Shown piece by piece: positions 2,925 to 11,223 of a stretch of DNA of 64,000 nucleotides. This DNA comes from Escherichia phage wV7. Each line of letters starts with the position of its first letter. Positions within the stretch are counted from its first letter, which is position 1. The stretch lies in sequence record NC_019505.1. One strand, written 5' to 3'. The position numbers were made by a program, and so were the translations under genes. The notes under the pieces are model-generated. The model was not told the origin of the DNA, did not search any database, and was given only the letters and a program-made list of their open reading frames with translations.

Positions 2925-4125
2925 ATTTTGTAATAATGTCAAACTGTTCTTTAAAGCAGAAGCTTGAATCTTGATGCTGATACAAAAATTCATATGCTTT
3001 TTCTCGCTCACGGTCATAAAGAGCTCGGTCAGATGACAGTTCTTTAATACGTTCAAACGTTGATTCCATATCATTTTCATCAAACCAAACGATACCGCTA
3101 TCATGCGAAATTAGCGGAGTATTATCAACACGGAATTTTAAATTTTCGCCAGTAGATTTCCAAAATACCGGAATTGTTCCACATGCACCAAGCTCGAGAT
3201 GAGTATATTCTAAAGAACGCTGTAGATATTTTTTATCCAACTTACTCAGCTGATAACCAAATCCGGATTTACTCATGCGTTCAAGCATTTCGCTATTTAC
3301 ATAACGGTCAAGAATTTGCGTTGGCAAATTAGGAGCAATTTTAATTTGGTCTACTTGATGAAGACGATAATACTCGTATGGAATTCCTTTTTCTTTAATA
3401 GGAATGAACGCTGGAGAACGTTCCAGACCTTCCATAATAGTACTTAGTCCTGCAGGTTTAAGATGTTTTTCGTGAAAATCAAACATCTGATAAAAACCTT
3501 TCCATGTAGTCGTACGACCAATCCAACGGTTGATATTCATGTTAATTTCAGAAACATCTTTCCAGTAGGTTGATCGAACCTTCGCAATATCCATAGGAGG
3601 CTGAAAGTTGTATACGGTCGGTGCTTCTTCAATATCATCAAACAGAGAAACTGTTTCTGGATACCATTCTTTCATCAGAACTTTATTAAAATCGCCATTA
3701 TCAGAATGACTAAAAATAACATCAGCTCGACGAACAGTTTCTTCTAATCCCAAATTTCGGCGCAAAGAAAGAGAAGAATGGTCATGTTGATAAACTACAA
3801 CACGAACCGAAGGTTTAATGTTATCAATAATTTTTTTATAGTTATTAATGGTGTCTTCTTCTACTGAAGTAGCAGGAACTGAATTGATAATTAGAATATC
3901 ACAATCATTTACCAGCTTAAGTGTTTTATCGTATTCTTTTGCCAATAAAACTGGAATTGAAAATGACTTATAATCATGCGCGCAATTACGAGTAAATGAT
4001 TTATCTTTAGCATAAACCAAAGTTACTTCATGACCATTTTTAATAAACCAATCACGCTGCTCAAGAGAAAATTTAGTTACACCGCAACCTTCAAGACCTC
4101 GAGCCATAAAAATACATACTTTCAT
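2923..4125 (-). CDS. agt: DNA alpha-glucosyltransferase
   Basis: 400 aa; near-identical to recalled T4 alpha-gt (MxxCIFMARGLEGCGVTKFSLEQRDWF..., C-terminal FKEQFDIITK). Confidence 0.9.
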   Translation of the reverse strand: MKVCIFMARGLEGCGVTKFSLEQRDWFIKNGHEVTLVYAKDKSFTRNCAHDYKSFSIPVLLAKEYDKTLKLVNDCDILIINSVPATSVEEDTINNYKKIIDNIKPSVRVVVYQHDHSSLSLRRNLGLEETVRRADVIFSHSDNGDFNKVLMKEWYPETVSLFDDIEEAPTVYNFQPPMDIAKVRSTYWKDVSEINMNINRWIGRTTTWKGFYQMFDFHEKHLKPAGLSTIMEGLERSPAFIPIKEKGIPYEYYRLHQVDQIKIAPNLPTQILDRYVNSEMLERMSKSGFGYQLSKLDKKYLQRSLEYTHLELGACGTIPVFWKSTGENLKFRVDNTPLISHDSGIVWFDENDMESTFERIKELSSDRALYDREREKAYEFLYQHQDSSFCFKEQFDIITK

Positions 4126-6181: not shown

Positions 6182-6508
6182 TTATACCTTAGTAATTTTC
6201 AGGTCTGCAAATTTTTTCTTGCGTTGATTTTTCATGCGACGAATAGTCTTATCGGAAATTTCATGCTTTTGATAAGCTTTAGATTCTACGCCAAAAGCTT
6301 TAACATCAAATTCTGACAAGATATATTGAACCAACAATTCACGGACAGTATTGCGTCCAATCTTCTGATCATTCTGTTTCATCATTTGATGAAGATCTTT
6401 TTCCCATTTATCCAAAATTTGAGGAGTTACAATATCGCCTTTTTCTAGCAAAGAAACTACTTTATCATATGCGTAAGAATTAATGACGTTTTTAATTTGA
6501 ATAGTCAT
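6182..6508 (-). CDS. Hypothetical protein
   Basis: 108-aa ORF. Confidence 0.5.
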   Translation of the reverse strand: MTIQIKNVINSYAYDKVVSLLEKGDIVTPQILDKWEKDLHQMMKQNDQKIGRNTVRELLVQYILSEFDVKAFGVESKAYQKHEISDKTIRRMKNQRKKKFADLKITKV

Positions 6509-7195: not shown

Positions 7196-7370
7196 GGAGT
7201 TTAATTTCCTTAGCAACTGAACTAAATGCAGCACGATCACAAATCATGTGTTTATGTAACTTAAGTATAAGATAATAAACATCATAACCATTTACGTAAG
7301 TAACGCGAACAGCATTACCATTAATAAGATAATACTGTCCCTTTTTAATTTCTTTATCAACCACAACCAT
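7188..7370 (-). CDS. Hypothetical small protein
   Basis: 60-aa ORF directly downstream of an early promoter. Confidence 0.5.
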   Translation of the reverse strand: MVVVDKEIKKGQYYLINGNAVRVTYVNGYDVYYLILKLHKHMICDRAAFSSVAKEIKLHG

Positions 7371-7400
7371 ATCAAATCCTCAAAGGCAATTCATGTGTTA

Positions 7401-7430
7401 ATAATACCACGGTTTGAACTTGTTGTAAAC
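7401..7430 (-). promoter_or_regulatory. T4-type early promoter
   Basis: Minus strand GTTTAC -35, about 17-nt spacer, TGgTATTAT extended -10; AACAACTTTGTGAAA upstream element. Confidence 0.6.
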
Positions 7431-7501
7431 AACTTTGTGAAAATTATTTTAGGGAATGATAAGAAGGGAACGATAGCTTAGAATGGTAATATACAGAATG
7501 T

Positions 7502-7524
7502 AAGAAAGAAAGGCCCAGAGGGCC
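7502..7524 (-). terminator. Rho-independent terminator downstream of nrdH
   Basis: GGCCC / GGGCC stem with 3-nt loop followed by U-rich tract on minus RNA. Confidence 0.5.
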
Positions 7525-7528
7525 CGTC

Positions 7529-7900
7529 TTAGTCTTCTATGATATCTCTATCATATCCAAGTGAAATGAGAGTTTCTTTGAAGTGTTTAATGTTCTTTTG
7601 TCTAGAATCATTGATGAAAATGACTGGATAACGAATGTTAAGAGATGTGAATCCGGCGCGTTTAGCAAGAGATACAATCAGTGGACGATCATACTCAATC
7701 TTACCATTATTTGTAAGAACTTTATAGAAAGTAAAAGGAGCATTGAGCTCCTTTAGAAGTTTTGTAACTGATTGACATCCAGGACAACGACCTACTTCAT
7801 CTGGAATTCCATAGACTTCAATCTTATTCTTTAAGTTCGAGTTTTGTTCCACGAGAAATAATTCCTTGGTAAGCCCAATAAGGAGGATTAACAGAATCAT
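7529..7900 (-). CDS. nrdH: Glutaredoxin-like protein NrdH; start uncertain
   Basis: CPGC redox motif in ...KIEVYGIPDEVGRCPGCQSV... and thioredoxin-fold pattern; no canonical start codon after the upstream stop, so N-terminus is ambiguous. Confidence 0.6.
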   Translation of the reverse strand: MILLILLIGLTKELFLVEQNSNLKNKIEVYGIPDEVGRCPGCQSVTKLLKELNAPFTFYKVLTNNGKIEYDRPLIVSLAKRAGFTSLNIRYPVIFINDSRQKNIKHFKETLISLGYDRDIIED

Positions 7901-8135
7901 TACCAGAATTTTCTTCAGGGAAATAAACCTGGATAACGAAGCCGGATTCATCAAAGGTGAAATAAGTAGTAGGCAGTTCACCTAACAAATCAGCACGAGC
8001 GTTGATTTCTTCGAGGTCTTGTTCACGTCCAGCCCAGAAGCTTGGGTTCAGACTACATTCATAGAAATAATAGTCATTACCGAACATATCAAAACCATTC
8101 CAACTCTCTACTACATACCGCTCAAAACTAATCAT
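7824..8135 (-). CDS. Hypothetical acidic protein
   Basis: 103-aa ORF. Confidence 0.5.
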   Translation of the reverse strand: MISFERYVVESWNGFDMFGNDYYFYECSLNPSFWAGREQDLEEINARADLLGELPTTYFTFDESGFVIQVYFPEENSGNDSVNPPYWAYQGIISRGTKLELKE

Positions 8136-8137
8136 AA

Positions 8138-8353
8138 TTAAGCCTTTTTATCAAGAACAGCATTCAGCTTGTTAGTAATTTTATCCAGACGCTCATTGAA
8201 CTCACTAGAAGATAAGCCTTTTTCTGGAGAAATTAAGCTAATCACGAAAAATACAACAATAAAAGGAATAAGGAAAATAGCTCCAACTGCCATAAACAGA
8301 AAGAATGTTACAGTTGTAAGAAAATCAGCTAAACCTTTACGAAATTTATACAT
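8138..8353 (-). CDS. Small membrane protein
   Basis: 71 aa with one long hydrophobic segment. Confidence 0.5.
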   Translation of the reverse strand: MYKFRKGLADFLTTVTFFLFMAVGAIFLIPFIVVFFVISLISPEKGLSSSEFNERLDKITNKLNAVLDKKA

Positions 8354-8468
8354 ATTTTACCCTTAATTGATTAACCAAGCATTGATAAGCACTAAACTAT
8401 ATTGGGAATAAAATTCTGGACCAAAATGAAAAATCATATCATTTATAGTATCCATAATATAATTCAAT

Positions 8469-8939
8469 TTAATCATGTTTCCACACCCCATCGGTATTTG
8501 ACCAAAGTCGCTGATTGTCTGATCCTCGCCACAGCTTTTTGGTCGGAAGATTTTTCTCATACTTCCCATCAATAATAACATCAACATATTTAAGCATTTC
8601 TAGTTGTTTAATATCTTCAAACTTATATCCTGTCCACAACCAAATGCTTTTATTGGGATAAAGATTTTTAATAGTTTGAACCACAGAGTGAATCACGTCT
8701 CTGTTATCAGGATAAAGAGGGTCTCCTCCAGTTATAGTTAATCCTTCTATATAATCATTATTCAAACACTGAATCAGTTTTTCTAATGTCTCTCCGGTGA
8801 ATGGAATACCATTTCTAGCATTCCATGTTGATTTATTATAACACCCTTCGCATTTATGCAAACAACCTGTAACGAAAAGAACGACCCTGCAACCAGGGCC
8901 ATTCACAAAATCACAAGGATAAAATCTATCATAATTCAT
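8469..8939 (-). CDS. nrdG: Anaerobic ribonucleotide reductase activating protein (radical SAM)
   Basis: 156 aa; CxxxCxxC-type cysteine cluster (CLHKCEGC); directly downstream of nrdD. Confidence 0.9.
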   Translation of the reverse strand: MNYDRFYPCDFVNGPGCRVVLFVTGCLHKCEGCYNKSTWNARNGIPFTGETLEKLIQCLNNDYIEGLTITGGDPLYPDNRDVIHSVVQTIKNLYPNKSIWLWTGYKFEDIKQLEMLKYVDVIIDGKYEKNLPTKKLWRGSDNQRLWSNTDGVWKHD

Positions 8940-10753
8940 TGATGCTTAACCCTATGCATGATTTCTTTATTTTTACCGAGATTAAATCCGCGCTCGTTCG
9001 GATTTCCCAAATAACCACATGTTCTTCTTATTGTATTCATCTTTTTAGGATCAGTTTCTCCACAAATAGAACAAACAAATCCGTTTTCAGTAGGAGTCAT
9101 TTCATGGGTACTTCCGCATGTAAAACATTTATCTACTGGCATATTAACACCAAAATAATCTAAATGTTGTGCAGCATAATCCCATACGGCCTCAAGGCCT
9201 TTTAAGTTATTTTTCATATCAGGAAGTTCAACATAAGAAATGTGACCACCTGTCGCAATGAAATGATATGGCGCTTCACGAGAAATCTTTTCAAACGGAG
9301 TAATATTTTCTTCTACTGAAACATGGAAACTGTTAGTGTACCAACCTTTATCGGTAACATCTTTTACGCTTCCATATTTTTCTGTATCGAGTTTACAGAA
9401 GCGATAACAAAGGTTTTCAGCAGGAGTCGAATATAAACTAAAAGCAAATCCGGTTCTTTCAGTCCACTGTTTAAGATGAGCATTCATTTTAGTTAAAATT
9501 TCTCGTCCAATATCACGACCGACAAGAATATTCAATTCGTGAATACCAATGTATCCTAAAGACACTGAACTTCTACCATTTTTAAATAACTCAATTATAT
9601 CGTCATCAGGTTTAAGACGAACCCCGAATGCACCTTCTTGGTAAAGAATAGGAGCAACAGTAGCTTTAACTCCTTTTAAGGAACTAATTCTACACATCAA
9701 AGCTTCAAAACATAAATCCATTCGTTCATTAAATAGCTCAACAAATTTCTGTTCATTGAACTGTGTTCCAATATAAGAATCTAACGCGATGCGAGGAAGA
9801 TTCAGTGTTACAACACCAAGATTATTACGTCCATCAAGAATTTCATTACCAGTCGAATCTTTCCATACGCTCAAGAAACTACGGCAACCCATTGGAGAAA
9901 CAGGAACAGATGAACCAGTGATAGCTTTATTGTTCTTAGCTGAAATAATATCAGGATACATCCTTTTGCTTGCACACTCTAGAGCAAGCTGCTTAATATC
10001 ATAATTCGGATCGTCTTTGTAAAGATTAACGCCTTCTTCGACGAACATAACAAGCTTAGGAAAAATAGGAGTTATCCCATCACGACCGAGACCTTTAATG
10101 CGGTTTTTAAGAATTGCCTTCTGAATCATTCGTTCAGTCCAGTCAGTTCCCGTACCAAATGTAATTGTTACAAAAGGCGTTTGTCCGTTTGAACTAAAGA
10201 GAGTATTTACTTCATATTCATAAGCTTGGAATGCATCGTATACATCTTTTTCTGTTTTAGATTGAGCATAATTTAACGCATCAGCGATTTGCCATTTTTC
10301 TGCATCCTCAATATGTTTTGCATAGGTGCGTTTAACATAAGGAGAAAGTACTTTATCTACATTAGCAAAAGTCGTTCCGCCATATTGATGGGAAGCAACT
10401 TGCGCAGTAATTTGTGCCATAATTGCAGTAGCAACGCCAATTGATTTAGGAGTTTCAATCTGTGCATTACCAAGCTTAAATCCGTTCTCAAGCATTCCTT
10501 TTAAATCTACTAAACAGCAATTAGTAAATGGAAGAGCAGGGGAATAATCAATATCATGGAAATGAATAATTCCGCTTTCATGCGCTTTCATAATAAAAGA
10601 CGGGACCATATTTTTGGCAATGTGTTTAGACACAATACCAGCCATAAGGTCCCGTTGAGTTGGAAAAACACGAGAATCTTTATTAGCATTCTCGTTTAAA
10701 AGGTCTTTATTAGTTTTATGAATCAATCCTTCAATTTCTTTTTCAATTGTCAT
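8936..10753 (-). CDS. nrdD: Anaerobic ribonucleoside-triphosphate reductase, intronless
   Basis: 605-aa uninterrupted ORF; C-terminal glycyl-radical region RRTCGYLG and CxxC zinc ribbon. Confidence 0.92.
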   Translation of the reverse strand: MTIEKEIEGLIHKTNKDLLNENANKDSRVFPTQRDLMAGIVSKHIAKNMVPSFIMKAHESGIIHFHDIDYSPALPFTNCCLVDLKGMLENGFKLGNAQIETPKSIGVATAIMAQITAQVASHQYGGTTFANVDKVLSPYVKRTYAKHIEDAEKWQIADALNYAQSKTEKDVYDAFQAYEYEVNTLFSSNGQTPFVTITFGTGTDWTERMIQKAILKNRIKGLGRDGITPIFPKLVMFVEEGVNLYKDDPNYDIKQLALECASKRMYPDIISAKNNKAITGSSVPVSPMGCRSFLSVWKDSTGNEILDGRNNLGVVTLNLPRIALDSYIGTQFNEQKFVELFNERMDLCFEALMCRISSLKGVKATVAPILYQEGAFGVRLKPDDDIIELFKNGRSSVSLGYIGIHELNILVGRDIGREILTKMNAHLKQWTERTGFAFSLYSTPAENLCYRFCKLDTEKYGSVKDVTDKGWYTNSFHVSVEENITPFEKISREAPYHFIATGGHISYVELPDMKNNLKGLEAVWDYAAQHLDYFGVNMPVDKCFTCGSTHEMTPTENGFVCSICGETDPKKMNTIRRTCGYLGNPNERGFNLGKNKEIMHRVKHQ

Positions 10754-11223
10754 TTTAAACTCTTTCTAAGCTGCTTCTTAAATGAAGCTATTAATTGTGT
10801 TTTAGTGTCAGATTCATTATATTCAAATCCTCTTTGAAGCATCTCAGCCATCATTTCCTCTTTTCCTAAACGAGAAAATTCCTTTGATTTATCTCCAACA
10901 AAGTTAGGATGAATATTATTTTGGGTGTAATCGGATTTTAAATAAGTAAGTAAATTTTCTAACCATTCAAGATAATCAACACCTTGCCCCTTTAAGCCAG
11001 AACGATTAAATTTATGTTTCATTTGACCTTCTGCGGCATTGCAGAGATTACAAAGCAATCCACGCACCTTTCCTGCTTTTGGTCCATTTAATTCATGGTC
11101 ATGATCAAGATGATTAGCTTGAACATCAGGATTTAGTTCTCGTTGGCAAATTAAGCATTTACCGTTTTGTGCATTATAAAATTTTTGTTTTTCTTCTTTG
11201 TATAATTTGCCAGTCAATAACAT
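10750..11223 (-). CDS. 49: Endonuclease VII (Holliday junction resolvase) gp49
   Basis: 157 aa; zinc-binding Cys pattern CLICQ ... CNLCN with HDHE; matches recalled T4 gp49 length. Confidence 0.88.
   Translation of the reverse strand: MLLTGKLYKEEKQKFYNAQNGKCLICQRELNPDVQANHLDHDHELNGPKAGKVRGLLCNLCNAAEGQMKHKFNRSGLKGQGVDYLEWLENLLTYLKSDYTQNNIHPNFVGDKSKEFSRLGKEEMMAEMLQRGFEYNESDTKTQLIASFKKQLRKSLK

Follow-up and report, generated by a model that had tools for sequence, protein, structure and literature searches.

The nrdH gene of Escherichia phage wV7 is very probably translated from a GTG codon with its own Shine-Dalgarno (SD) sequence, in short overlap with the upstream gene, to give a 107-aa soluble glutaredoxin-like protein. 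An earlier note, made from the sequence alone, had reported that the gene has no canonical start codon after the stop of the upstream gene. A GTG start and a short gene overlap are ordinary features and are already annotated in public T4-like phage records; the result is mainly a correction and implies no new biology. Positions refer to the window, i.e., the whole 64,000-nt stretch of record NC_019505.1 that was analyzed, and the genes discussed lie on its minus strand.

An in-frame GTG inside the upstream gene

The two open reading frames have the bounds that the earlier note gave them, 7529-7981 (-) for the maximal nrdH ORF, which comprises 150 aa from a GTG, and 7824-8135 (-) for the upstream ORF. 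It is also true that the stretch from the upstream stop to the CPGC motif contains no in-frame ATG, GTG or TTG. The 12 intervening codons, from the upstream TAA (7826-7824) to the first Cys, read ATT GAA GTC TAT GGA ATT CCA GAT GAA GTA GGT CGT and are followed by the CPGC codons TGT CCT GGA TGT (7786-7775). The absence of a start here is unremarkable, since a stretch of only 12 codons is free of start codons about 56% of the time ((61/64)^12 ~0.56). Furthermore, the upstream stop falls on the codons of the first β-strand (KIEVYG), so any start must sit inside the upstream gene.

Met codons had been taken as the sole alternatives in that region. This overlooked an in-frame GTG (7852-7850) located 29 nt inside the upstream gene, although GTG had been counted among the canonical starts. 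The apparent anomaly arose because the scan took only Met codons and starts downstream of the previous stop. Of the possibilities then offered, a gene overlap proved right in kind, but it is short (29 nt) and begins at the GTG, not at Met codons 75-150 nt upstream. The features of the locus are collected in Table 1.

Table 1. Features of the nrdH locus in the window (positions on the stretch of 64,000 nt).
Feature	Position	Strand	Basis or remark
Intrinsic terminator-like hairpin GGGCCCTCTGGGCCT with T-rich tail, directly after the nrdH stop	7501..7525	-	ATK47 annotates a terminator at the same place
nrdH CDS, best-supported form: GTG start, 107 aa, stop TAA 7531-7529	7529..7852	-	coordinates equal the KP869105, RB51 and Ac3 CDSs mapped to the window
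CPGC redox motif, residues 23-26	7775..7786	-	aligned with the active-site region of T4 glutaredoxin 1ABA
Overlap from GTG to upstream TAA, 29 nt	7824..7852	-	nrdH in the +1 frame
Upstream ORF, RB51ncORF079c / RB69ORF082c type, 103 aa, function unknown	7824..8135	-	PHROG 2749, E=8e-49
nrdH GTG initiation codon	7850..7852	-	read from the sequence; conserved across loci
129-nt extension of the nrdH frame before the GTG	7853..7981	-	open frame
Shine-Dalgarno CAAGGAA, spacer of 9-10 nt to the GTG	7862..7868	-	16S rRNA 3'-end duplex of -5.4 kcal/mol

The GTG is an in-frame canonical codon with its SD sequence 9-10 nt upstream, inside the range of 5-13 nt set for SD-dependent initiation, and among the six candidate starts it alone has a usable SD. 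Duplex energies with the 16S rRNA 3' end were +0.6 kcal/mol for GTG 7981, +2.2 for TTG 7954, +2.8 for ATG 7951, -1.0 for ATG 7900 and -0.9 for ATT 7822; those of the neighboring genes range from -2.4 to -6.0 kcal/mol. Initiation at GTG is weaker than at ATG, and the spacer is at the long end of the usual range. No stable RNA structure was detected around the start: the fold of 7800-7900 was no stabler than that of shuffled sequence (z=+0.64), and a regulatory structure masking the start was rejected on this basis.

We infer that ribosomes initiate at GTG 7852. They would be recruited by the CAAGGAA (7868-7862), which is encoded within Tyr-Gln-Gly-Ile codons of the upstream ORF, and would produce a 107-aa protein beginning with fMet-EQNSNLKNKIEVYGIPDEVGRCPGC... 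With both the SD and the GTG embedded in the upstream ORF, the two genes overlap by 29 nt and nrdH is read in the +1 frame. Ribosomes translating the upstream ORF would cross the GTG and terminate 26 nt downstream, so the overlap may allow some translational coupling. A search of the accessible literature for N-terminal or ribosome-profiling data on the NrdH N-terminus returned no direct experimental evidence.

Conservation of the start across genera

The start and its SD are conserved in orthologs. The GTG is present in 14/14 Tequatrovirus and Mosigvirus loci that carry the upstream ORF, in ECML-359, IME08 and Entb_45, and in T4-type loci without that ORF. SD, spacer and GTG can be aligned column for column between the window, T4, ECML-359 (Gaprivervirus), IME08 (Dhakavirus) and Entb_45 (Kanagawavirus), and are likewise conserved in Mosigvirus; the CAAGGAA is aligned with AAGGAG or AAGGTG in other genera and with TAAGGAA in T4. 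NrdH identity to the query is only 57-67% in Gaprivervirus, Dhakavirus and Kanagawavirus. In the upstream frame, the T of this start codon is the last base of a CGT or TGT codon; although silent there, it is invariant in every locus examined.

The 70-nt junction containing SD, GTG and KIEVYG was found at an identity of at least 90% in 417 phage records; IMG/VR contributed 9 loci, all of them close relatives. Across Straboviridae, NrdH homologs start 0-9 residues before the (K)IE(V/I)YGIP strand, those of Roth17, Cronus, UTK0003, PG7, Berthold, Phi1 and RCIP0021 from an ATG 0-7 residues before IE(V/I)YG. The comparison of start regions in related phages, proposed in the earlier note as a check, thus returned a conserved SD and GTG, and many records annotate nrdH from this codon. 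What was to speak against a missing start, namely a conserved internal ATG with a conserved overlap in orthologs, is seen in substance, with GTG in place of ATG.

Substitution patterns in the overlap and the upstream extension

Eight distinct close relatives were compared, and their variant sites were counted and scored in both the upstream-ORF and the nrdH frames (Table 2).

Table 2. Variant sites among eight close relatives, given as synonymous/non-synonymous in each frame.
Region	Variant sites	Upstream-ORF frame	nrdH frame
Upstream ORF before the extension (154 nt)	25	19/6	2/23
Extension upstream of the GTG (129 nt)	21	16/5	3/18
Overlap, GTG to TAA (29 nt)	0	0/0	0/0
nrdH only (292 nt)	68	5/63	46/22

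In the nrdH frame, coding-type substitutions begin at the start. The pattern in the extension resembles that of the earlier stretch of the upstream ORF, where the nrdH frame is closed; the extension is open but evolves as non-coding sequence in the nrdH frame, and appears to be untranslated. In its own frame, the upstream ORF shows 35 synonymous vs 11 non-synonymous changes, indicating purifying selection. At the neighboring rate, about 4.7 variants would be expected in the overlap, and none was observed (Poisson P ~0.01), which is consistent with dual coding.

In the wider set of 14 ORF-bearing loci, the codons from GTG to ATT vary at two sites, one synonymous in nrdH and one changing Leu to Val. 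In moskry and NHEP36 (around positions 440-458 of the locus), CAA stands in place of the upstream TAA; the change is synonymous in nrdH, lengthens the upstream ORF by two codons, up to a TGA within the nrdH KIE codons, and gives an overlap of 35 nt. A second change in the overlap, confined to NHEP36, is non-synonymous in both frames.

Alternative starts

The earlier note had also raised the possibility of a membrane-anchored glutaredoxin. Such a protein would start at ATG 7900 (123 aa, MILLILLIGLTKELFL...) or ATG 7951, with an overlap of 77-128 nt, and any start upstream of 7852 would yield NrdH N-terminal peptides such as MILLILLIGLTK... In relatives within Tequatrovirus and Mosigvirus, the frame is indeed open as far back as 7981, the predicted N-terminal peptide is hydrophobic, and a 123-aa version is annotated in one record, NHEP36. 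A membrane anchor calls for a hydrophobic N-terminus that is conserved and translated, but relatives that are 94-98% identical in DNA have lost the ATG and carry Arg, His and Thr replacements of hydrophobic residues. ATG 7900 is AGG in many phages with 97-98% identity, and the loci with AGG include RB51, Ac3, L005, L012, moskry, G9062 and HP3. The stretch ILLILLIG reads ILLTRHTG or ILLTRHIG in L006-L008, G9062, HP3 and NHEP36; in the upstream frame, the changes responsible are silent. The predominance of non-synonymous variants in the extension (18, against 3 synonymous) and the lack of an SD before either ATG point the same way. In ECML-359, IME08 and Entb_45, members of three other genera, stop codons 6-30 nt before the GTG close the nrdH frame; T4 could not make the extended form either, as its frame is open only 9 nt further upstream. 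The membrane-anchored form is thus largely refuted by the comparative data, and we regard it as exceedingly improbable. Phages that retain ATG 7900, this one among them, might use it as a minor second start, producing a 123-aa isoform with a hydrophobic N-terminal tail beside the main 107-aa protein; such a recent, lineage-specific dual start seems very improbable.

Initiation at a non-canonical codon, the remaining suggestion, would concern ATT 7822-7820, the first full codon after the upstream stop, from which a 97-aa protein beginning fMet-EVYG would be made. AUU starts are known in E. coli (infC), and such a protein would not be structurally impossible, since the homologs of Roth17 and Phi1 begin M-IEIYG. 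The case for AUU initiation would combine the absence of a canonical start with an SD placed for the ATT; instead, the best pairing before the ATT is AAAGA (-0.9 kcal/mol), no SD, while a proper SD and GTG lie 30 nt upstream and are conserved across genera. The codons between GTG and ATT, moreover, vary at just the two sites described above. Because a canonical GTG with an SD is present, a non-canonical start is unnecessary, and we consider it very unlikely. A +1 ribosomal frameshift late in the upstream ORF could in principle fuse it to an nrdH that has no start of its own, as the two overlap and nrdH lies in the +1 frame. This fusion was rejected, and its probability is close to nil: in T4, Roth17, Cronus, Phi1 and others, which lack the upstream ORF, nrdH stands alone with a start of its own, the upstream stop varies in position, the SD and GTG are conserved independently of the upstream ORF, and no slippery motif was seen in the 29-nt overlap on inspection by eye.

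Organization of the locus and comparison with T4

The window belongs to a T4-like phage of the genus Tequatrovirus. Positions 7300-8400 match 683 phage records, with 100% identity to Escherichia coli O157 typing phage 7 (KP869105) and 97-98% to RB51, AR1, Ac3 and many other Tequatrovirus genomes. In RB51, Ac3, AR1 and O157 typing phage 7, nrdH (e.g., ACP30994.1, AKE46088.1) has the identical arrangement and coordinates, a 324-nt CDS that begins at the GTG and overlaps RB51ncORF079c by 29 nt, at a DNA identity of 97.8-100% and with no material difference.

The minus strand follows the T4 order: nrdD, nrdG, a 37-aa ORF (ORF074c), 55.8, the 103-aa ORF (ORF079c), nrdH, the terminator and 55.6. The genes from nrdD to nrdH form a compact block, with junction spacings of -4, -8, +9, +2 and -29 nt, in which nrdH is the last cistron of nrdD-nrdG-ORF074c-55.8-ORF079c-nrdH, ending at the terminator at about 7525-7501. 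A pattern search of 7300-11200 found no T4 late (TATAAATA) or MotA-box middle promoters; with no such motif inside the block, nrdH appears to be read from a polycistronic transcript.

The T4 nrdH (NP_049686.1, 102 aa) is 99% identical over residues 8-107. It too starts with GTG, its AAGGA-type SD lies within the last codons of the gene before it, and the same terminator and 55.6 follow. In T4, no gene of the upstream-ORF type lies between 55.8 and nrdH, so that a 2-nt gap takes the place of the 29-nt overlap: the GTG follows TAAGGAA at a distance of 6 nt and the 55.8 stop at 2 nt. The N-terminal tail of the T4 protein is 5 residues shorter (MKQNK... vs MEQNSNLKNK...).

The 103-aa upstream ORF (PHROG 2749) represents an insertion or deletion relative to T4 (window 7824-8135 (-) vs T4 locus 3085-3150). 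RB51-like, Mosigvirus, Gaprivervirus, Dhakavirus and Kanagawavirus genomes carry it, and it is missing in T4-type genomes; the nrdH GTG of T4 directly adjoins the end of 55.8 (…AGTAAGGAATAG). The AAGGAAT common to both arrangements looks like a possible recombination junction at this indel. At the other end of the block, nrdD (8469-10753 (-)) is an uninterrupted ORF of 605 aa with a 4-nt overlap with nrdG, whereas the T4 nrdD contains a group I intron with I-TevII and is separated from nrdG by the mobC homing endonuclease; the window has neither element.

Two further elements were observed on the minus strand. The nrdH CDS itself contains a terminator-like hairpin, AAAGGAGCTCAATGCTCCTTT and then a T-rich run (7754-7734), which may be a chance match. 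An early-promoter-like site at 7430-7401 (GTTTACA, 17 nt, TATTAT, with TG upstream) is situated between the nrdH terminator and 55.6, which are 158 nt apart.

Protein family

The product is a thioredoxin-fold, glutaredoxin-like protein and an ortholog of T4 NrdH. The 107-aa form scores 23.8 bits against Pfam PF00462 (Glutaredoxin; cut-off 22.9), while the 150-aa maximal ORF falls just under the cut-off with 22.4; PHROG 22 adds a thioredoxin domain match (E=5e-16). The protein has the CxxC immediately after strand β1 and the conserved Pro before β3. Its placement in the T4-type NrdH orthologous group draws on both identity and synteny (nrdD-nrdG-55.8, terminator, 55.6), the gene order matching T4 and RB51.

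The closest solved structure by sequence is the T4 glutaredoxin, the nrdC product (PDB 1ABA, 1AAZ; E=5e-4), residue 3 of 1ABA aligning with residue 12 of the 107-aa NrdH. Strand β1 (KVYG), the CxxC position and the later conserved Pro (MPQVF vs YPVIF here) all align. The nrdC glutaredoxin is nevertheless a distant paralog encoded elsewhere in the genome, and its active site in the native 1AAZ sequence is CVYC, vs CPGC here.

Bacterial NrdH-redoxin, the electron donor of class Ib ribonucleotide reductase, carries the same gene name and likewise has a thioredoxin-fold CxxC architecture, but the context here is the anaerobic class III pair nrdD/nrdG and not nrdEF. NCBIfam models, NrdH-redoxin included, gave no match at E<=0.01, so the name nrdH should not be taken as membership in the class Ib NrdH-redoxins. 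Given that the closest solved relative is the T4 nrdC glutaredoxin and that the neighbors are class III genes, the name is potentially misleading.

Public annotations

A 324-nt nrdH CDS starting with GTG is annotated in RB51, Ac3, O157 typing phage 7, ATK47, moskry, G9062 and HP3; the annotated overlap with the upstream ORF in these seven records is 29 nt (35 nt in moskry). The databases are not unanimous, as two records use other starts. In the automated annotation of NHEP36 (locus 376-747), nrdH begins at an ATG that precedes the KIEVYG Lys codon by 75 nt and encodes a 123-aa protein with a hydrophobic N-terminus, and this ATG is not conserved. Entb_45 (locus 892-1233) has the gene starting 18 nt ahead of the homologous GTG, at an ATG. 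The start annotation of nrdH is therefore inconsistent between records, and the comparative data favor the conserved GTG.

Another gene of the region is also annotated unevenly. The 55.2-like ORF at 6182-6508 (-) is intact in the window (108 aa), and 55.2 is a single CDS in RB51; the KP869105 record divides it into two short CDSs (locus 382-709), a split that is probably an annotation artifact.
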